DNA from: Nitrososphaeria archaeon
Lineage (GTDB): Archaea; Thermoproteota; Nitrososphaeria; Conexivisphaerales; UBA164
Direction: 5' to 3'
Length of the DNA stretch: 64,000 nucleotides
Assembly (NCBI GenBank): GCA_049967195.1
Contig: JBMFTE010000001.1
Span: 15,734 to 79,733, forward strand
This document shows, in pieces, positions 286-37,656 of this stretch. Below the pieces are notes generated by a model. That model was not told the origin of the DNA. It was given only the letters and a program-made list of their open reading frames with translations, and ran no database searches. Position 1 is the first letter of the stretch. Every line of letters begins with the position of its first letter. The translations under genes and the position numbers were made by a program.

Positions 286-1833
286 TCAACCTGCCATAGG
301 TCCTAAAACAAGTAAAGGCAACAGTGTTATTATAACTAAAAGAAATATAAATATTATTAACGTGAAGCTAAATGCAAGTGTGTCGGTTCTTATCTTTGTA
401 GCTGACTGATTTTTTTTCTTTTTAATAAACTCATTAGCAATTAATAACCCAATCATTAAAAATAAATATCTTCCAAATAACATTATGACGCCGGTTAGGT
501 AATTAAGGGCGGCGGAGTTTCCCAAAACCCCAAAAAAATCGGCACCGTTATTTTGAGCTGCACTAACTATTTCCCATAAGGCCTGTGTGAAACCTGAACC
601 AAGAGAAGGGTATAGGGTTTTTGGTAAAATAAGCAAGGCGAGTAAAATACCGGCATAGATTAAAAGCGGATGCAAAAGAAACGCCAAAGAAGATAACCTT
701 ATTTCTTTCGCATTTAGTTTAAAATTTAAATATTCAGGCATTCGCCCTGACATCAAACTTATAAAAAATACTGTTAAAATCGCGTAGACTTCTATATCTA
801 TAAAACCTGTACCAATTGATCCAGGGGCCATCGCCACCACCATACCCACTATATATATTGCCAGTGCGCCTTTACTTAGCCCGATTAAAGGCGCTGACAA
901 CAACCCTGTATTTGAGAAGATAGATGTTGCTGTTAAAATTTTAGTATTAAACGAGCCTATCCTAAATGGGAAGGCACCGAGCGGCTCATACAATATAATT
1001 ACGAACGCTATCAAAAAAATTAACATTGAAGCGACAAGCAAAAATAACCCTTCCTTTTTGTTTTTTAGGTTAAACCCAAAAAGCCAAAATAATGATAATG
1101 GAAAAACCAACATTGATGCAGATTGAATTAAATTTGTTAAGATGTTTGGGTTTTGTAAGGCAATGGCCGAACCAAGGGCATAGTAAGAACCACCATTGTT
1201 ACCCAATGTCATAATGGGCAATAGTGAACTTATGGGACCAACCGGCTCAGGAAACTTGATTATTGAAATAAACGCTTGCGGAACCCCAAGAGCCATGTAT
1301 ACTAATGATAAAACTAAAGAAATTGGTAAAAAGATCATTAAAAGCGCAGATAGTACATCATTATAGAAATTGCCGATTCTTCCGTGTGTAATTGATCTAA
1401 TAAAAGCTATGCTTACAGCAAGCCCCGTAGCAGGAGCAATCCATTCAAGAAATTGAAGCGCAAACGCTTCGCCATATGATGTAAACGTAAATTCACTTGC
1501 AAAATGCTCCAAGTCCGTATTTGTTATGAACGAAGCAAGCGTATTAAACAACAACGATGATGTGATGTGATATCCAGGGTAAAGTGATGTCATTAGAATG
1601 ATAGTAGCAATTATCACAACAAAAAGATTAAACACTAATAGTGATATAAAATAGGTTCCCCAACTCATGTCTTCCCCGAAAATATTAAAACCCTTTAAAA
1701 TTTTATAGATAAGTTTGTTTTCGCCAAAAAAAACACGATTTTCCAACAAGGCTAAAAAATAAGATAATGATATCACAAAAATTGTAAATACTAAAATCAT
1801 AAAAAAATTAAGGGGGCTTTCTAATGATATCAA
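286..1833 (-). CDS. kdpA: K+-transporting ATPase subunit KdpA
   Basis: 515-aa polytopic membrane protein. LGNNGGSYY resembles the KdpA selectivity-filter LGTNGGGFF. kdpB follows immediately. Confidence 0.8.
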   Translation of the reverse strand: MISLESPLNFFMILVFTIFVISLSYFLALLENRVFFGENKLIYKILKGFNIFGEDMSWGTYFISLLVFNLFVVIIATIILMTSLYPGYHITSSLLFNTLASFITNTDLEHFASEFTFTSYGEAFALQFLEWIAPATGLAVSIAFIRSITHGRIGNFYNDVLSALLMIFLPISLVLSLVYMALGVPQAFISIIKFPEPVGPISSLLPIMTLGNNGGSYYALGSAIALQNPNILTNLIQSASMLVFPLSLFWLFGFNLKNKKEGLFLLVASMLIFLIAFVIILYEPLGAFPFRIGSFNTKILTATSIFSNTGLLSAPLIGLSKGALAIYIVGMVVAMAPGSIGTGFIDIEVYAILTVFFISLMSGRMPEYLNFKLNAKEIRLSSLAFLLHPLLIYAGILLALLILPKTLYPSLGSGFTQALWEIVSAAQNNGADFFGVLGNSAALNYLTGVIMLFGRYLFLMIGLLIANEFIKKKKNQSATKIRTDTLAFSFTLIIFIFLLVIITLLPLLVLGPMAG

Positions 1834-3915: not shown

Positions 3916-4389
3916 TCAGAAGCAATTTTTTAATTTATCATAAGTTCTGTACAAATGCTCTGGCAAAACCTTTACTTCGCCTATAACAGGCATAAAATTG
4001 GTATCTCCTCTCCAACGTGGAACTAGGTGAAAGTGGAGGTGCTCAAACCCCGCCCCCGCATCTTCTCCTATATTAGCACCAAAATTGAATCCGTTTGGCC
4101 TAAGTTTTTCTTTTAAACATTTTTCGCTCTGATTAAGCATTATAAAAATTTCTGTTAGTTCTTCTTTTGTTAATTCTGATATTTTAGAAATGTGCCTAAT
4201 GGGTACGAACATGAGGTGGCCGTTATTATAAGGGTATTTATTCATAATGATAAAGCTGTTTTTTCCCCGGTATAAAACCAAATTTTCTCTATCTAATTTT
4301 TTATTTGCTTTGATGACGTCGCAAAATAAACAATTTTTGGGTACGGCCTCGATAAAATCTATTCTCCAAGGAGCCCAAACAACTTTCAT
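3916..4389 (-). CDS. HIT-family nucleotide hydrolase/transferase
   Basis: Histidine triad HLHFHLVPRW; 157 aa. Confidence 0.8.
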   Translation of the reverse strand: MKVVWAPWRIDFIEAVPKNCLFCDVIKANKKLDRENLVLYRGKNSFIIMNKYPYNNGHLMFVPIRHISKISELTKEELTEIFIMLNQSEKCLKEKLRPNGFNFGANIGEDAGAGFEHLHFHLVPRWRGDTNFMPVIGEVKVLPEHLYRTYDKLKNCF

Positions 4390-4589
4390 TTTATCATATT
4401 AACAACATGTTCTAATTTAAACCTTTTTAATATAAGCAGTTTACTTGGAGGTTGGGCCAATAAAGCCGCCAATTTACGTTTATTCTCCAATTGTAGACCA
4501 GAAATCGCTAGGTCCAATGTTATAGCATCAACGGCCTTTTTAAAAACCACATAAATCTATGTGACTTCATTTTTTATATATTTTAGAAA

Positions 4590-6728
4590 TTAGCTGTAAA
4601 CTGAAGAATGAGTAAATCTAGATTCAATGTGCTTGTTTATTTCATCATAAAATTTTAGCAGCGCTGGTGTTAATGATGGTTTAATGCGTTGCAAGCTTTC
4701 GTTGAAGTCTTCTAGCTTAATTTTTTCTGAGCCTCTGCTAATTGCTAAAAGTCCTGCTTCTCTTACGAGAGATTTTAAATCGGCTCCGGAATAACCTTCG
4801 GTTTTTGCAGCAATATAATTAATGTTTATTTGCTCTTCAACATATACCTTTTTTATAAATGCAGTTAAAATTTTATTTCTTTCGTCTGCGTTGGGGGGGC
4901 CAACATACACAAGCAGGTCAAATCTTCCCGGTCTAAGTAATGAAGGGTCGATCAAATCAGGCCTATTTGTAGTTCCGATTACAAATACCAAATCTTCCGG
5001 CTGTAAAGAATCTATTGCTGTTATGAGCTGGCTTACAATTGACTCGATGGAGTCTTGATTCGATCCCCTGATTTTCGTAATGGAATCTACTTCGTCTAGC
5101 AGTATAATAGATGGGGCTGAAGATTTTGCTTTTCTAAAAATTTCTCTTACTGCTTTTTCTGATTCTCCAACCCACTTGCTTAAAATCTCTGGTCCCTTTA
5201 TTGTAATTAAATTTGCCTTGGCTTCATTTGCAAGTGCTTTAGCCAGCAGGGTCTTGCCACAGCCGGGGGGCCCATAAAGCAGAACTCCTCTTGGAGGCTC
5301 TATTCCAACCTTCTTGAATTTTTCTATGTTTTCTATAGCTTCTACTACATTTAATTTTAATTTTGATATCAGGTTTTCATATCCGCCAATATCGCTCCAT
5401 GAAATCTTTGGAATTTCAAAATATAGCTCCCTAAGGGCGGTAGGAACTATTTGTCTATAAGCGTGCAGAAAATCTGAGTCCGATACAAATATGGTATTTA
5501 TTTTTTCTTCAATCAAGTTTTTTTCCTCTAAGGCCTGCGGCGTAATTCTTCTAATGGCATTAAATGCTGCTTCTCGACACAATGCTGCTAAATCAGCTCC
5601 ACTATATCCTGCCGTCATTCTTGCATATTTTTTGAGATCTACATTATGCTCTAGTGGCATACCTCTGATGTGTATATTTAAAATTTCCAACCTTCCATCC
5701 TCGTTAGGAACCCCGATTTCTAATTCTCTATCAAATCTTCCTGGGCGCCTCAACGCTGGATCGACGTCCTCTACTCTATTGGTTGCGCCTATTACAATTA
5801 CGTCGCCGCGGTCCTTTAACCCATCCATCAATGTCAACAGTTGCGCCACTACCCGAACCTCTGCTTCACCAAAAGCCTCGCTCCTTTTTGGGGCTATAGA
5901 ATCTAGTTCATCAATAAAGATTATACTAGGCGCATTCTTTTTAGCTTCCTTGAAAATCTCTCTTAATTTGGCTTCAGTTTCTCCGTAGTATTTACTCATT
6001 ATCTCAGGGCCGTTTATTGAATAAAAACTTGCATCAGTTTCATTTGCAAGTGCTTTAGCCAGCAGGGTCTTGCCACAGCCGGGGGGCCCATAAAGCAGAA
6101 CTCCTCTTGGAGGCTCTATTCCAACCTTCTTGAACAGTTTTGGGTATTTTAGTGGCAACTCCACCATTTCTCGCAGTATCTGTAACTGATCTTTTAACCC
6201 ACCTACATCCTGATATGATACGCCGTTTTCGGTTCTCTTTTTATGGCCCTGCAAAATTTTTGTTTTGCTGCTTATTTTAACCGCGCCTTTTGGGTTAGTA
6301 AATACTATCAAAAACGTTATTGTATTCCCCATAAATTTTGTTTCTAATATATTGTTTTCAAATACGGGAACACCAACAAAATTTTTTTTAAAAATGGTCT
6401 CAAGCGCCTTTTTATCTAGTTTTATATCTGAATTATTAAATTCGACTTGTATTTGGAGTGCCTCCTGCAAGTTGGCCTGTTTTATTGTAACATAATCGCC
6501 GATTTTTACTCCTGTATTTTGCCTTGTTATACTATCTATCTTTATTGTTTCAGTATCTTTTTCATAATGCGGTAATGCATAAGCTGCGGCCAGAGATTTA
6601 CCGGCAATTATTAAAACGTCTCCTTTTTTTAATTTCATTGATTTAATTAGTTTATCGGGGATCCTAACCCGGTATTTTCCGATATCACGGGGCAAAGCCT
6701 CGACAACCCTTAACTTAAATTCGCTCAA
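4590..6728 (-). CDS. cdc48: CDC48/VCP-like AAA+ ATPase (N domain plus D1 and D2)
   Basis: Two AAA modules, each with GPPGCGKT Walker A and DE(L/V)D Walker B. Has a CDC48 N-domain-like start. Confidence 0.9.
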
Positions 6729-18158: not shown

Positions 18159-18304
18159 TAGGGAACATTTTTATCAAATATAAACATAGCACAATTTATC
18201 ATAAATAAACTCACTACATCACAAAAATATATTGGCAAAGATATAACGTTGGCAAGCCGGGTTGGCCAACAATGTTGGTAAATATATAAAATGGCACCTT
18301 TGTC

Positions 18305-18447
18305 CTTTGTTGCATTATTTTGATCTAATTGCATAATGTCAAATTATGACAGGTTGGCCAGAGGATAACAAGCCGGTTAATGAGGTAGTTGATGTATTTG
18401 TCAGCACAGACCTGCTGGTTGGTCAGGAGAAGCAACTAAAGTACACT
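18305..18447 (+). mobile_element. Solo terminal fragment (about 140 bp) of the IS5-family element found at 27404-28347
   Basis: TCCTTTGTTGCATTATTTTGATCTAATTGCATAATGTCAAATTATGACAGGTTGGCCAGAGGATAAC... matches the reverse complement of 28347 downward. It covers the first ~30 transposase codons (MTGWPEDNKPVNEVVDVFVSTDLLV), then diverges and ends. Confidence 0.85.
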
Positions 18448-18487
18448 TTCGGAAAAGTATATAAACGCCCATTTTAAAAAACTGTAA

Positions 18488-18600
18488 GCCGGCCATAGGA
18501 GTAGGGCTCTACCCGGTCCCATCTGAACCCGGAAGTAAAACCTGCTACCGCCGCTGTGTTAGTGAGATGCGCAAGCTCTCGTGAAGCAGCGGTGCCGGCG
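18488..18600 (+). rRNA. 5S rRNA (unlinked to the 16S-23S operon)
   Basis: GCCGGCC...CCCATCTGAACCCGGAAGTAAAACC...GGTGCCGGC. It has the conserved loop-B/helix-III motif and terminal helix GCCGGC/GCCGGC. It is a GC-rich island in an AT-rich intergenic region. Ends are +/- 5 nt. Confidence 0.85.
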
Positions 18601-18646
18601 CCTCATTCTTTTTGTTAAGGAATTAAAATATAGTGTTATTAAGTGC

Positions 18647-27403: not shown

Positions 27404-28347
27404 TCTTTTGTTACATAAATCTTGACCCGCTTATTTTATTGCATTAAAGGGATTCCATAATAATGATCTTTAGCATCTATACCATGTAATCTGTGTCATT
27501 TCTGCTAGCCTTCACCATATTGTACTCTAACGACTGATCTTATTGTTTATTCCAATGTTTTGTATTGATGTTCCTGTAGCATCCTCCTCAATATGTAAAA
27601 CATGGTTTTAACACGCCCTATGGCGTTTCTTCTTCTATACCTACGGGTCTGACAGCAACCCACTTACTCCCCTGGCACAAGAATTACGGGCATTTATGTG
27701 AAGCTCATCTTGATTACAGGCTCATCACCTATTGCATAATTGAAGCTAGCCCTTTAATCGTACGCTGAATCACCAAAAACATTGCTTGTCTTTCTTACAG
27801 CGTACTTCGCATTGAGCTAGCCTAATCCTTCCCTTCAGATTTATCTGTTACCTGCACACTTGTTATCAGGCGGTTGGCTATGTCGCAGATTATGTGCAAC
27901 TTCACCCATCCCCTCCTGATGGCCCACTTCTGCCTGACCCCTCTGTTGAAAGCTTTGATACCTGTAGAATCAATTGCTATATCTACGGGCTTGTCATATT
28001 TTACCCCAAGAGGCACTTTCAGCTCCTTCTGCCTTCTGCAGATCTGTGTGTAGGAAGGTATCCTTGCTCCCCATATCCCGCCTAACAACCTGGCAAACCC
28101 TTCCGTCTGCCTGTAGGGCAGGTCAAAGTATTCCCTGACAGCAAGTATTATGACCATCAGTGCATTAGAATAGCTGTATGGCCTTCCCCTCTTATCCTTG
28201 CTCATCTGCTTCAGCTGTTTCTTTTGGTCTACAAGCAGGTCTGTGCTGACAAATACATCAACTACCTCATTAACCGGCTTGTTATCCTCTGGCCAACCTG
28301 TCATAATTTGACATTATGCAATTAGATCAAAATAATGCAACAAAGGA
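27404..28347 (-). mobile_element. Decayed IS5-family (DDE) insertion sequence, about 0.94 kb
   Basis: Imperfect terminal inverted repeats: TCTTTTGTTACATAAAT at 27404 and TCCTTTGTTGCATTATT (reverse complement) ending at 28347. Encloses a broken transposase reading frame. Confidence 0.75.
27600..28304 (-). pseudogene. IS5-family transposase pseudogene
   Basis: The 160-aa N-terminal ORF (27822-28304) ends prematurely. In other minus-strand frames downstream I read KYAVRKTSNVFGDSAYD*RASFNYAIGDEPVIKMSFT*. This is the DDE (GD.AYD...PVIK) region interrupted by stops. Confidence 0.75.
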
Positions 28348-32247: not shown

Positions 32248-32289
32248 CCTTTTTAAACGCTACTTTTTAATTGCCGCCTTTTACTGATC

Positions 32290-32917
32290 ATAAAATCATC
32301 GCCTTAAAAGCGAAGGATACAGTTATACTTTGAAGTTTATTTTTCCAAAAATTAAGCAAACAGGGCAAAAACGATAGAGAAGTAAACAAAGGAAATACAC
32401 GGCCAGAAGGAGCTTTGAGGTGCTGGAAAACATTTGATGAGCAAAAGTTCATGCCGGAATACCTGTGTTTTGCGCGTGACCTTAAAGTGGGAAAGGCCCG
32501 GTTTTAACTGGACGCGGTTCGCTGCGTAAAAGCGCGTGTCTTGTTCGAAGATAAGTTTTTGTGCTTTAAGATTGCCAATCGGATATTTAAAAGGTTGTAC
32601 CACAGCAAATGCTATATTGCTTTAGGGATACTAGGAAAATGTTAAATTGATAACAGTAAATTGGGGCACTCAGTTTAATTGACCAAACTTTCAGCTGAAG
32701 ATAGAGGGTGTACGCCTGCAAGTTCTGCGGTTTAACAATAGACGGGGACCTGAACTCGGGAATTGAAAATGATGCAAAAGGCCATCTGGTCCTGGGTACA
32801 ACCTTAATGCCTGAGAATGATGAGACACCACAGTTATGCTGGAATACCTATTCCGTACGTTGCTGCGAGCCTCGTCGGTGAAGCGGGACGCGCCCAGCTT
32901 TAGCTGGCGTAGTTCAC
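32290..32917 (+). mobile_element. Internally deleted tnpB relic of an IS200/IS605-type element, copy 1 (about 0.6 kb; 5' boundary approximate)
   Basis: Broken frames end in RVYACKFCGLTIDGDLNSGIEN, the TnpB C-terminal zinc-finger/RuvC-III pattern (C..CG...D.DLNAAINI). This is followed by a structured non-coding tail ending ...GTTCAC. No intact ORF. Confidence 0.6.
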
Positions 32918-34113
32918 AATGTTATTGTCTGAAATTCCCACGGCAGTCTGATTTGTATTATAGTTTTGTCTTCCACTTGGAAGCGGCCAACCACCTGAAG
33001 GTCACGTCCGATAGATTTAAGGTATCCCTTTAACATTAAAAGCCATGGAGAAACCGGTAGCTTACCATCCTTGCCCGCGTATTCTATGTTAATTATTTTA
33101 GTTAGTTCATCATATTTTACAGTGCCATCCTTTATATCAGACGAAATCAACTCGATAAAAACAGGTATAGCTAGATTAAATTCAGACGTAACAAATTGAG
33201 CTGGCACTCTTGTTTTAAAAATATCAACCATTTCATCTCCTATTTGCCAAAGCACGTCTTCAGGCAACCTTTCAAAAACTGCATGAGAAAGAATTTCGAA
33301 GATGCCTTTGTCGTTTTTTAAATTGAAAAAGTCTTCTGCGGATCCAGTGTTTATCAGCCTAATGTAACTTTTTATATCGATTGAACTTAAAATTATGGGA
33401 TCAACTACATACTTGTCAATCAGGCCTATGAGCTGGGGCAGCATTATAAGCACGCCCGTTCCGCTGTCTTCGTTTATAAGAAGCATGTATTTATCGTCGC
33501 TAATGATTGCGCTGCGACCGTCAATGGTATTGCCAACCAGCATGGGCAAAAGAGAAATTGATGCATCATTCACTAGTTCAGTATCCTTTGGAGAGACAAT
33601 GGCATTAACCTTCACCTCAGAAAGTCTCATCGACATCAACTGCCTTTCATATTTTTTTATTATCCCAAAAGTATTGGAATTAACAATGAATGTTATTTTA
33701 TCCCTAGTTTTGCTTATCATGTCATTGACTACGCTTTCTATGCCTCCACCGTTTATAATTTGGAATGATCCCTTTACGGAACTTACACCGGTTTTCTGGC
33801 TCATCGACCTTATTTCGCTTACCAGTGATTTCAGCTCTCTGAACTTTCTTTCTTCCTGTTCTATTATGACTTCAAACGGTTCAGGGCTGGATACAGCAGA
33901 AAACTTTCTTGGCCTGCCATAAGCCTCGACGAGCTTCTTTTTAATCAATCCCCTTATAGATTCATAGACCTTAGTTCGTGGTACCCCGGAATTAAGCGCA
34001 AGCTCACCTCCCTGTAAAGATCCCTTGGTTATAAGCGTGAGGTAAACCCGGGCCTCGTATTCGGTAAGTCCAAGTTCCTTAAGCTTCCCCACCATCTTGA
34101 TTAATTCTGACAT
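32914..34113 (-). CDS. TrmB-family transcriptional regulator (N-terminal wHTH, coiled coil, large C-terminal domain)
   Basis: LKELGLTEYEARVYLTLITKGSLQGGELALNSGVPRTKVYESIRGLIKKKLVE is the TrmB HTH signature. 399 aa. Divergent from the ESCRT-III/Vps4 operon. Confidence 0.75.
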   Translation of the reverse strand: MSELIKMVGKLKELGLTEYEARVYLTLITKGSLQGGELALNSGVPRTKVYESIRGLIKKKLVEAYGRPRKFSAVSSPEPFEVIIEQEERKFRELKSLVSEIRSMSQKTGVSSVKGSFQIINGGGIESVVNDMISKTRDKITFIVNSNTFGIIKKYERQLMSMRLSEVKVNAIVSPKDTELVNDASISLLPMLVGNTIDGRSAIISDDKYMLLINEDSGTGVLIMLPQLIGLIDKYVVDPIILSSIDIKSYIRLINTGSAEDFFNLKNDKGIFEILSHAVFERLPEDVLWQIGDEMVDIFKTRVPAQFVTSEFNLAIPVFIELISSDIKDGTVKYDELTKIINIEYAGKDGKLPVSPWLLMLKGYLKSIGRDLQVVGRFQVEDKTIIQIRLPWEFQTITL

Positions 34114-34213
34114 ATAAAATCTATTATAACATAATGCTATAATTCAATATGACAACTATTTTTGACCTTTATCTCAAAAATATGTCACTGATATATGCTG
34201 TTACTGTGGTTAC

Positions 34214-34909
34214 ATGCTAACCAAGTTACAAAACGGTAAAATTAAAATCCAAGATACTATGGGTACAATGAGCGATTTTGCTAAGAGATGGAGTTCACCG
34301 CAGGGAGAGGGTGTAGGGGAAAGGATAAGGGGCGCCGTAAGACCAGAAGGGCCACTGAAGCCAAGGATAGAGCAAGCTACAAGGCAGCTGCAGATGCAGA
34401 TAACAAAGCTGGATAATACAGCAAACAGGCTAAAGGAGAAGGATAACGCAACCTTTTCCAAAATTGTAAATTACCTTCAAAAGCACGATACTGACCACGC
34501 CACAGTTTATGCAAATGAGCTGGCAGAAATAAGGAAAATGTATAAAATGATAAGCCAGGCGAGGCTAGCGCTTGAACAAATAGTTACTAGACTTTCCACT
34601 GTAACAGATTTGGGTGATGTGGTTGTAACACTGGCACCGGCTATGTCAGTAATAAGGAGTGTCAGAGCCGGGTTAACTCAAGTAATGCCAGCTGCAGAGG
34701 GCGAAATATCAGAAATATCTTCGATGCTCAGCAGCATACTGGTAGATGCAGGACAGATGAGCGGAACAACACTTAACTTCGAAAGTGCAAATGAAGATGC
34801 AGAAAAGATACTAGCAGAGGCAAGCACTTTGGCAGAGGCTAGGATGAAGGAAAAGCTTCCAGATCTTGGAACACTTGGAATTTCAGAAGGAGAAAAGCAC
34901 CAAATCTAG
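34214..34909 (+). CDS. ESCRT-III/Snf7-family protein (CdvB-like), paralog 1
   Basis: MSDFAKRWSS...LKPRIEQATRQLQMQITKLD...DHATVYANELAEIRK is the helical-hairpin pattern of archaeal CdvB/Snf7. No C-terminal wH. The likely true start is at 34268 (MSDF). Confidence 0.8.
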   Translation: MLTKLQNGKIKIQDTMGTMSDFAKRWSSPQGEGVGERIRGAVRPEGPLKPRIEQATRQLQMQITKLDNTANRLKEKDNATFSKIVNYLQKHDTDHATVYANELAEIRKMYKMISQARLALEQIVTRLSTVTDLGDVVVTLAPAMSVIRSVRAGLTQVMPAAEGEISEISSMLSSILVDAGQMSGTTLNFESANEDAEKILAEASTLAEARMKEKLPDLGTLGISEGEKHQI

Positions 34910-34994
34910 GCACCCGCTAATATAATTTTTTCTTTTTGTTAATTTTTTTTGACTTTGATTAATAAATGGGACAAATGTGAAGAGGTGTATATAA

Positions 34995-35582
34995 TTGAAA
35001 TTTATTTTTAACCCGTTTAGGAAAAAGAACGGCGACGAGCTTAAGAAAGCCCTTAGGGAACTTACCATATATCGCTATAACTTGGCAAACTTGGACCTCA
35101 GGATAAAATCTAAAATGCAGATAATGGAGGGCAAACTATCAACAATGGATCGCAGTAAAGATGAAGCCAGAATCCTCGCGAATGAATACGTGGTACTTGA
35201 CCGGGTTTCGCTCCTTGTAGGCCGAATCGATTTGCTTTTATTGAAGCTTTCGCTAAGGTTGGAGAGCTTGATAGAATTTAAATCGCTAATAATGGCACTG
35301 CAGGATGCTACAACTTCATTAAATAAACTAAAGCCATATTTAGCAGGAATTTCTGACACATACGGCTTGCTGATAAGCCAGTTAAATGAAGCGATGCAGG
35401 AAATGGGCGCTGTATCTGTATCCCCCGCCGGAATATCTATTCCAATGTTAGATGAAGACGCAGAAAATGTGCTCAATAATGCGGTAGATTTTACGCTTGG
35501 AGAAACTGATTCAGATACGGGAATAAAGGAAATAATTTTGCAGGCCGCTAAAGATGGCCAGCTGGTTGAAGAGGTTGCTTAA
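34995..35582 (+). CDS. ESCRT-III/Snf7-like protein, divergent paralog 2
   Basis: 195 aa, all-helical with heptad character. TTG start. Sits between ESCRT-III paralog 1 and Vps4. Acidic C-terminal tail. Confidence 0.6.
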   Translation: MKFIFNPFRKKNGDELKKALRELTIYRYNLANLDLRIKSKMQIMEGKLSTMDRSKDEARILANEYVVLDRVSLLVGRIDLLLLKLSLRLESLIEFKSLIMALQDATTSLNKLKPYLAGISDTYGLLISQLNEAMQEMGAVSVSPAGISIPMLDEDAENVLNNAVDFTLGETDSDTGIKEIILQAAKDGQLVEEVA

Positions 35583-35584
35583 TC

Positions 35585-36754
35585 ATGAGCTACCAAGCAG
35601 CAGGAGAACTAGAATCTATAGCAATAAAATACGCAAACGAAGCAATAAGGCTCGACAGCCAGGGAAGCTATCCCCAGGCAATTATGATGTATCAGAAGTC
35701 CATAGAAACACTAATGAAACTGATAAACCTCTATCCAGATTACAAGTTAAACCAGATTTATACACAGCGCGCAATTGCATACAGAGAAAGGATAAAGGCC
35801 ATTCAGAGAGCAAGGGGAATAGGGGAAGAGGCGGGCGTTGAGCCAAAGGATGGTGAAGGGAGAGTGGAAACACTGCGGGCAAATTTTGACGATTTGGTCT
35901 TAAAGGAAAAGCCGGACGTCAAATTTGATCAGGTAATCGGGTTAGGCGAAGCAAAAAGAGCCCTTGAAGAGGCGATAATCTTTCCAAATAAGAGGCCTGA
36001 CCTTTTTCCACTTGGGTGGCCACGTGGAATTTTGCTTTATGGACCGCCTGGATGTGGAAAAACCATGCTGGCTGCAGCAACGGCAGCTGAAATTGATGCG
36101 ATATTTTTGTCTGTTGATGCTGCAAGTATTATGAGCAAATGGTTGGGAGAAGCAGAAAAGAACGTTATGAAGCTATTCCAGCAGGCCCGCGAAATTGCCC
36201 AGCAGGAAAACAAGGCGGTTATAATATTCATAGATGAAGTCGATTCATTGTTTGGCACAAGATCTCAGGAAGTGGGTGGGGAAATAAGGGTCAGAAACCA
36301 GTTCTTAAAGGAGACTGATGGCATTACAGAAAAAGGCAAAAAGGTCCCCATATACATTTTAGCAGCCACAAATAAACCTTGGTCGCTTGACCCTGCCTTT
36401 TTAAGAAGATTTGAGAAGAGAATATTTGTTAATCTGCCAAATGAATTGGCAAGAAAAAACATGTTCGAGCTATATACTCAGCCCTTAATGCTTGACTCAA
36501 GTGTCAAGCTTGAAACACTTGCCAAATTGACTGAAGGTTACACTGGAAGCGACATAAAGGACATAGCGCAATCGGTGCAGCTAAATGTTGTGAGGGAATT
36601 GTTTGATTCAGGTGATGCATTAAATTTGGGTTCAAAGCCTAGGCAAATAACCATCGAGGATTTTAAAAATGTGGTAAAACAGAGAAGGCCAAGTGTAAGC
36701 CCGGAGTTGTTGAAAACATATATTAAGTGGAGCGAAAGCTTTAAGGCTCTTTAA
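35585..36754 (+). CDS. cdvC: Vps4/CdvC AAA+ ATPase with N-terminal MIT domain
   Basis: MIT-like AIKYANEAIRLDSQGSYPQAIMMYQKSIETL. Walker A GPPGCGKT, Walker B IIFIDEVD. 389 aa. Starts 2 nt after the paralog 2 stop. Confidence 0.9.
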   Translation: MSYQAAGELESIAIKYANEAIRLDSQGSYPQAIMMYQKSIETLMKLINLYPDYKLNQIYTQRAIAYRERIKAIQRARGIGEEAGVEPKDGEGRVETLRANFDDLVLKEKPDVKFDQVIGLGEAKRALEEAIIFPNKRPDLFPLGWPRGILLYGPPGCGKTMLAAATAAEIDAIFLSVDAASIMSKWLGEAEKNVMKLFQQAREIAQQENKAVIIFIDEVDSLFGTRSQEVGGEIRVRNQFLKETDGITEKGKKVPIYILAATNKPWSLDPAFLRRFEKRIFVNLPNELARKNMFELYTQPLMLDSSVKLETLAKLTEGYTGSDIKDIAQSVQLNVVRELFDSGDALNLGSKPRQITIEDFKNVVKQRRPSVSPELLKTYIKWSESFKAL

Positions 36755-36770
36755 AGAGGGGGTTGGCATT

Positions 36771-37010
36771 ATGAATAAAAAATATGATGTGGAAATAAAA
36801 AAGGCGGAGAAAGCATTAAAGATTCCCAAAGAGAAAATTGACAGCTTAAAGGGACTTAGTGGAAAAATATTATCGTCTATGAAAAAAGAGTATGTTGATT
36901 GCCCTGTTATAAAGGAACAGGTGCCATTTATCGTGTGTTATCAGTGCCAATCTTTTATCAGAAGATATAGAGGAGTTGTTCACTGTGCAGGGGAAAAGGG
37001 CCCATATTAA
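36771..37010 (+). CDS. Small 4-Cys protein co-oriented with and 16 nt downstream of vps4
   Basis: 79 aa: N-terminal helical part, then CPVIKEQVPFIVCYQCQSFIRRYRGVVHC (C-x12-C-x2-C-x12-C). No family recognised. Confidence 0.45.
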   Translation: MNKKYDVEIKKAEKALKIPKEKIDSLKGLSGKILSSMKKEYVDCPVIKEQVPFIVCYQCQSFIRRYRGVVHCAGEKGPY

Positions 37011-37039
37011 ATGGTCAGACTCGTTTTAGATTAAGCGGG

Positions 37040-37656
37040 AACCTGCTATTTGAGTTGTTTTTATTGATTGTAAAACCATAGCTTTTAAGCGATGGATCAT
37101 CAACATGTTTCTGTTCTCAAAAATTATGTAATGCTGGGCAAAAGCGAGAGAATTGCAGAGAGCAGGAAGATGACAAAGGAACGGCACGAGGGGATGACTG
37201 TAAAGATGTCAAGGTGCTGAAGAATAACCTTGATGCGACCACCCTTAGGCTAATAAGAATTTTCATTGAGGCCAAGTGGTTCACAAACAGTGCTCAGGAA
37301 CCATTCAATGCGAGGTCAAGAGCGTGCAGGTTAATGCTGGCGACAACTTCGGAGAAAGGGAGTAAATGTTCTATCAAGCCAGATGAGACAGGACATCATA
37401 GATAGTATATTCAAGCTGCCACAGGCTCAACAAAATCACTCTCAGTCAGAGGGTGTACGCCTGCAAGTTCTGCGGTTTAACAATAGACGGGGACCTGAAC
37501 TCGGGAATTGAAAATGATGCAAAAGGCCATCTGGTCCTGGGTACAACCTTAATGCCTGAGAATGATGAGACACCACAGTTATGCTGGAATACCTATTCCG
37601 CACGTTGCTGCGAGCCTAGTCGGTGAAGCGCACAGTTTTAGCTGGGCTTAGTTCAC
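37040..37656 (+). mobile_element. Internally deleted tnpB relic of an IS200/IS605-type element, copy 2 (5' boundary approximate)
   Basis: Same family and orientation as copy 1. Positions 37448-37630 match 32703-32885 with 2 mismatches in 183 nt. Ends ...GTTCAC at 37656. The upstream part is homologous but much more diverged and full of stops. Confidence 0.6.

Follow-up and report, generated by a model that had tools for sequence, protein, structure and literature searches.

Two decayed tnpB relics bracketing a block of archaeal cell-division genes share a tract of almost identical DNA, and this near-identity is probably the product of a recent DNA exchange, by gene conversion or an equivalent event, between elements of different subfamilies. 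Homology of both loci to one tnpB family, a structure common to the right ends of this family, and a mosaic distribution of differences are plain from the alignments; conversion would be the mechanism behind the mosaic. Both relics lie in the window (the whole 64-kb stretch of DNA that was analyzed; coordinates refer to it unless a contig is named). A preceding sequence-only reading had offered two explanations for the near-identity, recent gene conversion or selection on an RNA, and the mosaic pattern with its discordant tails favors the first.

A repeat search of the window yielded a 183-nt direct repeat of 99% identity (32703-32885 and 37448-37630, denoted as the modules of copy 1 and copy 2), with a spacing of 4.7 kb. 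As originally noticed, the modules differ at only 2 of 183 positions (T/C at 32856/37601 and C/A at 32873/37618), and a stretch of 154 nt (32702-32855 in copy 1) is free of any difference between the copies. Assuming the ~76% identity of the left ends (LEs), the only other alignable part of the two copies, the chance of such an identical run is ~6e-19. The tails following the module (copy 1, GGACGCGCCCAGCTTTAGCTGGCGTAGTTCAC; copy 2, CACAGTTTTAGCTGGGCTTAGTTCAC) are related yet distinct, as had been described: they are distinguished by a 7-nt indel (GCGGGAC, absent in copy 2), a 1-nt indel, and three substitutions, and GTTCAC closes both of them (32912-32917 and 37651-37656). Upstream of the module, the copies are alignable solely over the left-end stretch, comprising ~88 columns with 76% identity. 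The statement that the upstream parts hardly align is thus correct, but what lies upstream in copy 1 is for the most part not a tnpB relic.

A JGI metagenome contig (L012, 4029 nt) corresponds to window 32806-36834 at 99.975% and contains the right part of copy 1, its tail, and the junction with the neighboring TrmB-family gene. L012 begins within the repeat and hence confirms, from a separate assembly, the right part of copy 1; this support applies to that part only and not to copy 2. No match to copy 1 was obtained by blastn against a plasmid collection, and scans with exact 21-mers returned one locus per collection, L002 in the genomes and L003 in the metagenomes, the host genome being outside the collection. 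The features of both loci are compiled in Table 1.

Table 1. Features of the two tnpB relics and of the adjoining gene end (window coordinates).
Feature	Position	Strand	Basis or remark
Older mini-element left end: motif TTTTACTGATCAT and imperfect hairpin	32279..32315	+	alignment
Decayed, shortened right-end-like segment, end GGTTCGC	32455..32522	+	covariance model R1
163 nt without detectable homology to the element family	32523..32685	.	nhmmer, blastx, tblastn
Copy 1 relic proper: 5'-truncated tnpB 3' end and right end	32686..32917	+	nhmmer, tblastn, R1
183-nt module, copy 1	32703..32885	+	exact tract 32702-32855; mismatches 32856, 32873
TrmB-family stop codon (TGA)	32914..32916	-	inside terminal GTTCAC 32912-32917
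Putative guide of copy-1 omega-RNA, AATGTTATTGTCTGAAATTC	32918..32937	+	from position only
Copy 2 left end: TTTTATTGATTGT and hairpin CCATAGC-TTTTAA-GCGATGG (37076-37095)	37059..37095	+	alignment
Copy 2 tnpB N-terminal remnant, P0007 aa 4-102	37137..37409	+	blastx, tblastn, nhmmer E 5e-48
Copy 2 tnpB C-terminal remnant, P0007 aa 333-418, and right end	37411..37656	+	tblastn E 3e-11

Judged by homology, both loci go back to an insertion sequence of the IS200/IS605 superfamily that carries tnpB only (IS1341-like); what remains of it is protein-dead and non-autonomous. Their identification as tnpB relics, already made from the bare sequence, is supported by blastx matches of both loci to the intact TnpB protein P0007, by tblastn with P0007 (E 3e-11 for copy 2, E 8e-9 for copy 1), a search that detected neither a further tnpB copy nor an intact tnpB within the 64-kb window, and by nhmmer with a profile of intact elements (E 1e-22 to 5e-48 against both loci). 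The TnpB profile PF07282 gives a weak match to the translation of copy 2 (Pfam, E 0.0038, below threshold), and the module translation ...RVYACKFCGLTIDGDLNSGIEN... is recognizable as a TnpB Zn-ribbon/RuvC-III motif in degenerate form. Aligned with P0007, the module covers aa 346-418, and from there it extends up to the right end (RE), so the proposal that it comprises the tnpB 3' end plus the RE was right. A word-indexed protein search delivered the relative P0001, a protein of 127 aa with PF07282 and 63% identity that comes from a metagenome genome, and a HMMER search with P0001 retrieved mainly short fragments, i.e. further relics. P0007 is the closest full-length protein (418 aa, PF01385 and PF07282 above threshold); it is annotated as a transposase and originates from Nitrososphaerota MAGs, where intact copies of the family occur. 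A tnpA neighbor is lacking at all four intact loci (P0007, P0152, P0153, P0154), which places the family in the tnpB-only, IS1341-like branch of IS200/IS605. Mobilization of the elements would presumably depend on a transposase provided in trans. The notion of a nuclease-dead TnpB, prompted by a Gln opposite the catalytic Glu, was rejected, as Q-x-[D/E] is found throughout the clade including its bacterial members; the acidic residue of this clade is probably merely offset in the alignment.

The ends of the family are well recognizable. Right ends finish with GTAGTTCAC or a slightly different sequence; that of the most distant member is GTAGCTCAA. Left ends have TTTTAYTGAT in common, after which comes a hairpin with the loop TTTTAA, the stem of which covaries (CCATCGC/GCGATGG, CCTTTGC/GCAAAGG, CCTCGCC/GGCGGGG). 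Subterminal imperfect hairpins are thus present at both LE and RE, with compensatory stem changes across elements, and the repeat search of the window found no inverted repeat between the element ends. A comparison for a candidate TAM or left boundary revealed no common motif 5' of the conserved TTTTAYTGAT; TTCAC, the terminus of the RE, which is also seen in the form TTCAT at the native TrmB end of the relative L016, was considered and is absent beside the left ends. The shortest layout is displayed by L003a, a 312-nt mini-element on metagenome contig L003 (330-642) that consists of an LE and ~150 nt of RE only; a second right-end-like segment is located downstream of it on the same contig. 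A decayed relic in a Nitrososphaeria MAG (L002, 190-265 and 290-902) lies, by eye, directly downstream of an apparent tRNA gene; L002 and L013, a relative considered below, stem from the same assembly.

The two relics were regarded by the sequence-only reading as equivalent deletion derivatives of roughly 0.6 kb, a view that their architectures contradict. Copy 2 is an internally deleted element, in which P0007 aa 4-102 are fused to aa 333-418 with the loss of ~0.7 kb. Its LE shows 82% identity to that of L003a, its N-terminal remnant carries frameshifts and stops, and its right part scores 118 bits with R1. The 7-nt deletion (GCGGGAC) directly follows the module and removes the 3' strand of helix 1 of the predicted RNA scaffold, of which 26 of 30 pairs are left.

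Copy 1, which retains only P0007 aa ~346-418 in a frameshifted form, belongs to a locus that is read most economically as a composite: an old mini-element extending from the hairpin at 32297-32315 to 32522, 163 nt of other DNA, and the 5'-truncated relic. The older LE, with the hairpin CATCGC-CTTAAAA-GCGAAG, reaches only E 0.38 when searched by nhmmer alone; it aligns with those of copy 2, L003a, and intact elements, and its hairpin stem covaries across elements. The segment at 32455-32522 is suggestive of the right end belonging to this mini-element and probably represents it: R1 assigns to it 17.9 bits (E 0.008 for 112 kb searched, 3.9e-5 locally), and MAFFT aligns it with the right ends of the family. 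For the following 163 nt, neither nhmmer with the intact-element profile nor blastx or tblastn gave a match. Apart from the weak left-end match, nhmmer homology to intact elements starts at ~32686 (E 1.2e-22, HMM positions 1109-1362), and the relic reaches 139 bits with R1. Its predicted omega-RNA scaffold (32775-32917) has 29 of 30 pairs intact. Since the locus is composite and the upstream parts of the two copies correspond to different element parts, they cannot be aligned with each other.

The right ends of the family are structured. RNAalifold predicts four helices with compensatory changes in the last ~150 nt; over 30 pairs in these helices and 10 elements, 94.2% of the cells are paired, compared with 33-37% when partners are slid by 1-3 columns, and double-sided changes occur at 12 pairs versus 2-5 in the slid controls. 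None of 500 shuffles attained the observed pairing values, in a test that comprised ten sequences only and in which the structure was derived from the same alignment. Pairs are kept to different degrees (L003a, 29/30; L001, 23/30, with one strand of helix 2 lost; L002, 20/30), and the losses in L001 and L002 are at different places. In single-sequence folding, the modules are no stabler than shuffles (z = -1.0 and -0.8), so the structure is apparent at the family level only. In position and kind it is what is expected of a TnpB omega-RNA scaffold. The suggestion that the module resembles omega-RNA was borne out as far as the covarying, family-wide structure at the RE is concerned, but not by a match to a described omega-RNA: Rfam 15 gave nothing at E <= 5 for the window locus and only a chance-level match to GadY for an intact element.

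This structured region is at the same time protein-coding. The tnpB stop codon falls within the loop of the terminal hairpin, meaning that nearly the whole right end is coding and that the last ~150-215 nt serve together as coding sequence, RE, and predicted scaffold. The scaffold region encodes a C-terminal peptide conserved in the clade (TSTxMxEYxNxIPxxxAS...ETG); the dual-use region corresponds to 4100-4272 of L004 and to aa 370-418 of P0007, and the same holds for P0152-P0159. As the peptide is conserved as well, part of the sequence conservation is at the protein level. The terminal RE hairpin could also act as a single-stranded-DNA signal for a transposase. Copy 1, with its scaffold almost intact, could yield a guide RNA if an intact TnpB is present elsewhere in the genome. 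In the IS200/IS605 superfamily, the guide comprises the ~16-20 nt located 3' of the right end. This position of the guide is given in the legend to Fig. 1b of Meers et al. (2023, bioRxiv 10.1101/2023.03.14.532601). The segment 32918-32937, which would take this place in copy 1, runs antisense to the 3'-terminal codons of the TrmB-family gene.

Evidence for an exchange comes from the distribution of differences between the copies, with 0 differences in 153 nt and then 7 events in the last 62 nt (Fisher p = 1.3e-4). In its terminal 29 nt, copy 2 equals L001, an element of another genome (29/29 identical, GCGCACAGTTTTAGCTGGGCTTAGTTCAC), whereas the tail of copy 1 has the CCCAGC...GGCG states of L003a and L004, an assignment to subfamilies that draws on three substitutions and two indels in about ten family members. 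GCGGGAC is retained in copy 1 and every other member and is missing from copy 2 only. Because the tails match different elements elsewhere, they are best taken as inherited subfamily differences, and the identical tract appears to have been copied across subfamilies in the host genome. The first ~70 nt of the module are located upstream of the conserved structure and are nevertheless perfectly identical, while the same region differs by ~13-23% between genomes and shows lineage-specific deletions. The left edge of the tract lies ~17 nt inside the remaining homology of copy 1. Such an edge is predicted by conversion in either direction, so the direction is not inferable from it; a comparison with L001 was also given up for this purpose, its deletions being private and its substitutions without a clear signal.

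In the proposed mechanism, a non-reciprocal exchange (gene conversion or some equivalent process of recombination or repair) would have occurred between two directly repeated elements of different subfamilies situated 4.7 kb apart. The tract would have stopped ~60 nt before the right end, with each copy keeping its own older tail. A third copy elsewhere in the genome may have served as the donor. When elements of different genomes are compared, conservation is higher at the right end than in the remainder of the relics, so there is some selection in the family on the RE/omega-RNA region; the identity within the genome is not explained thereby.

Alternatively, both right-hand parts could be recent, independent descendants of one active master element, with tails and left parts altered later. 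Near-identity over 154-183 nt is typical of recent copies, the two relics differ in their deletion architectures as independent derivatives do, and intergenic sites around the gene block gather mobile-element remnants in relatives. This scenario is nonetheless unlikely, as the tail differences are non-random, copy 2 agreeing with L001 and copy 1 with L003a/L004. Since these tail states are common to elements of other genomes, a master element would still require recombination. Moreover, copy 1 lacks a matching left end; the LE at its locus is only 76% identical to that of copy 2 and is probably paired with the older internal RE.

Purifying selection on an omega-RNA that serves, in trans, an intact TnpB encoded elsewhere, or on a domesticated ncRNA, might likewise be supposed to keep the module identical, and several features go with it: the module is located at the conserved, covarying structure of the family, copy 1 keeps 29/30 scaffold pairs, mini-elements such as L003a retain the LE and ~150 nt of RE only, and PATEs often encode omega-RNAs that would depend on TnpB in trans, as stated by Meers et al. 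(2023). As the cause of the sharp identity within this genome it is quite improbable. The identity extends over the ~70 nt upstream of the structure and fails in the 3' ~60 nt beside the predicted guide start, i.e. it decays before the RE, the part most needed by an omega-RNA. Copy 2 has lost helix 1 by removal of its 3' strand (26/30), modules of other genomes are 13-23% different and harbor lineage-specific deletions, and the 64-kb window is devoid of an intact tnpB. Selection would also be unable to erase neutral differences over 154 nt and yet leave the tails subfamily-specific. An assembly artefact, in which two diverged repeats were collapsed or polished to one sequence, might be suspected given that the source is probably a metagenome-derived genome and that L012 breaks within the repeat, showing that assemblers struggle there, but it is hardly credible, because L012 has the last 112 nt of copy 1 with both copy-1-specific bases and the tail (99.975% over 4 kb), collapse merges near-identical sequences only and would not create 154 identical bases from ~80%-identical copies, and the flanks are unique and consistent on both sides.

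Copy 1 abuts a convergent TrmB-family ORF (32914-34113, minus strand, PF01978). It was said to end inside the stop codon of this gene, and the overlap is real, 32914-32916 being part of GTTCAC; the sequence is, though, native-like in L016. The idea that the IS end supplied the TrmB stop by luck was therefore softened: L016 natively has TCATAATG, and every orthologue ends with ...TITL* at 399 aa, so the insertion left the TrmB-family protein unchanged. The gene end reads TCATAATGTTATTG in L016 versus TCACAATGTTATTG in the window; TCA(C/T)AATG is the native end in L016, and the RE shares its final four bases with sequence of a native type. GTTCAC followed by AATG occurs in three independent elements (window 32912-32921, copy 1; L001 707-716; L004 4267-4276), and the element-free TrmB end of L016 (~5137-5145, minus strand) is TTCATAATG. 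Behind the recurrence of GTTCAC plus AATG there may be a preferred target site, or the right end may extend 4 nt further than is taken here.

The relics bracket a 4.1-kb block (~32913-37013) that encompasses the TrmB-family gene, two CdvB/ESCRT-III-like genes, Vps4, and a 79-aa ORF. An exact-protein look-up gave no record for the 79-aa ORF or for the SHMT of the window. The same block is present in four relatives (L013-L016) at 80-87% nucleotide identity. Neither relic is found in L013 and L014, where the neighbors differ on both sides of the block; L016, a Conexivisphaerales MAG and a closer relative, is the only one with the radical-SAM neighbor that the window has on the copy 2 side. Other remnants occur at these borders. 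In L015, a remnant of another TnpB family follows the 79-aa ORF (~470-560, minus strand, ...CGLKINRQLNAAINL..., by eye). At the L016 site orthologous to that of copy 2 (878-1024, minus strand), there is a ~150-nt, right-end-only relic of a different subfamily (end GGGTAGTTCAC, R1 21 bits), which was rejected as an orthologue of copy 2, its terminal hairpin and tail being unrelated. Downstream of TrmB, L016 harbors a frameshifted HTH_Tnp_1 transposase remnant (5373-5600, PF01527, E 1e-7), and its TrmB gene (3944-5143) is split into ORFs of 260 aa and 105 aa. From these remnants and the differing neighbors it follows that the block borders repeatedly gather mobile-element debris and coincide with synteny changes; on this comparative basis they look like recurrent sites of insertion and rearrangement. 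In a further reading of low probability, the directly repeated relics themselves would drive rearrangement of the 4.1-kb cell-division block. The observation at its basis is that the neighbors of the block differ between relatives on both sides.

With respect to known systems, the family resembles tnpB-only elements of the IS1341 group (e.g. that of ISDra2 TnpB): a P0007-type homologue harbors OrfB_IS605 and the Zn-ribbon (TNB), an adjacent transposase gene is lacking, both ends carry subterminal hairpins, and a covarying structured region overlaps the tnpB 3' end and runs to the right end. Unlike intact members of this group, the window copies are dead, with stops, frameshifts, and large internal or 5' deletions; and unlike in ISDra2-type systems, the ORF reaches the last hairpin loop, rendering the whole predicted scaffold coding. 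Protein-less derivatives with an LE and ~150-230 nt of RE, for which L003a is a clean example, are like PATEs and other MITE-like elements. According to Meers et al. (2023, bioRxiv 10.1101/2023.03.14.532601), PATEs often encode omega-RNAs that would depend on TnpB in trans. They differ from the window copies in that copy 1 has no matching LE and copy 2 has a damaged scaffold; the latter two look like decaying remnants rather than actively spreading mini-elements; the host is an archaeon here and Geobacillus in the case of PATEs. With the sotRNAs, sense-overlapping ncRNAs at the 3' end of archaeal IS1341-type tnpB genes (Gomes-Filho et al. 2015, PMC4615843), the case has in common the archaeal host and the expectation that the 3' end of such a tnpB gives rise to an RNA. 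The sotRNAs were detected experimentally from intact Halobacterium genes, whereas the relics described here are known from sequence alone. Finally, a short identical tract between older, diverged flanks, discordant flanks that group with different lineages, and direct partners 4.7 kb apart are reminiscent of ectopic gene conversion (concerted evolution) among prokaryotic repeats and IS copies.

Several other repeats were recorded in the window. A 139-nt inverted repeat, 94% complementary, has its arms 9.8 kb apart (18303-18441 and 28209-28347); the right arm overlaps the start of a 160-aa ORF (27822-28304, minus strand) together with the region upstream of it, and the left arm, an orphan copy, lies a short way upstream of the 5S rRNA gene (18485-18603). 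A 256-nt direct repeat of 75% identity is found at 5080-5335 and 5896-6151 (816-nt spacing). Inverted repeats around 16S and 23S genes are expected as processing stems of archaeal rRNA. Two such pairs (58837-58899/60355-60417 and 60487-60529/63568-63610) flank the 16S and 23S rRNA genes of the window, and the 5S gene, at 18485, is unlinked to them.

As a whole, the case is well explained by known transposon biology together with ectopic recombination and does not call for a new kind of system. It provides a worked example of a tnpB relic that may look "selected" and yet be a recombination mosaic, and the comparison of the flanks of an identical tract with elements of other genomes is a test for such a mosaic. 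It also explains a repeat-induced contig break beside archaeal cell-division (cdv) genes, which is of use for annotation. For the uncultured Nitrososphaeria, a tnpB family is documented whose reading frame extends over all of the predicted guide-RNA scaffold, along with mini-elements of the same family consisting of two ends only. That copy 1 is more than debris, its nearly intact scaffold being expressed and taken up in trans by a functional TnpB from another part of the genome, has little likelihood; if true, its guide would be complementary to the 3'-terminal codons of a TrmB-family regulator beside the cdvB/vps4 cell-division genes, and the RNA might in addition act as a cis-antisense RNA on the mRNA of that regulator.
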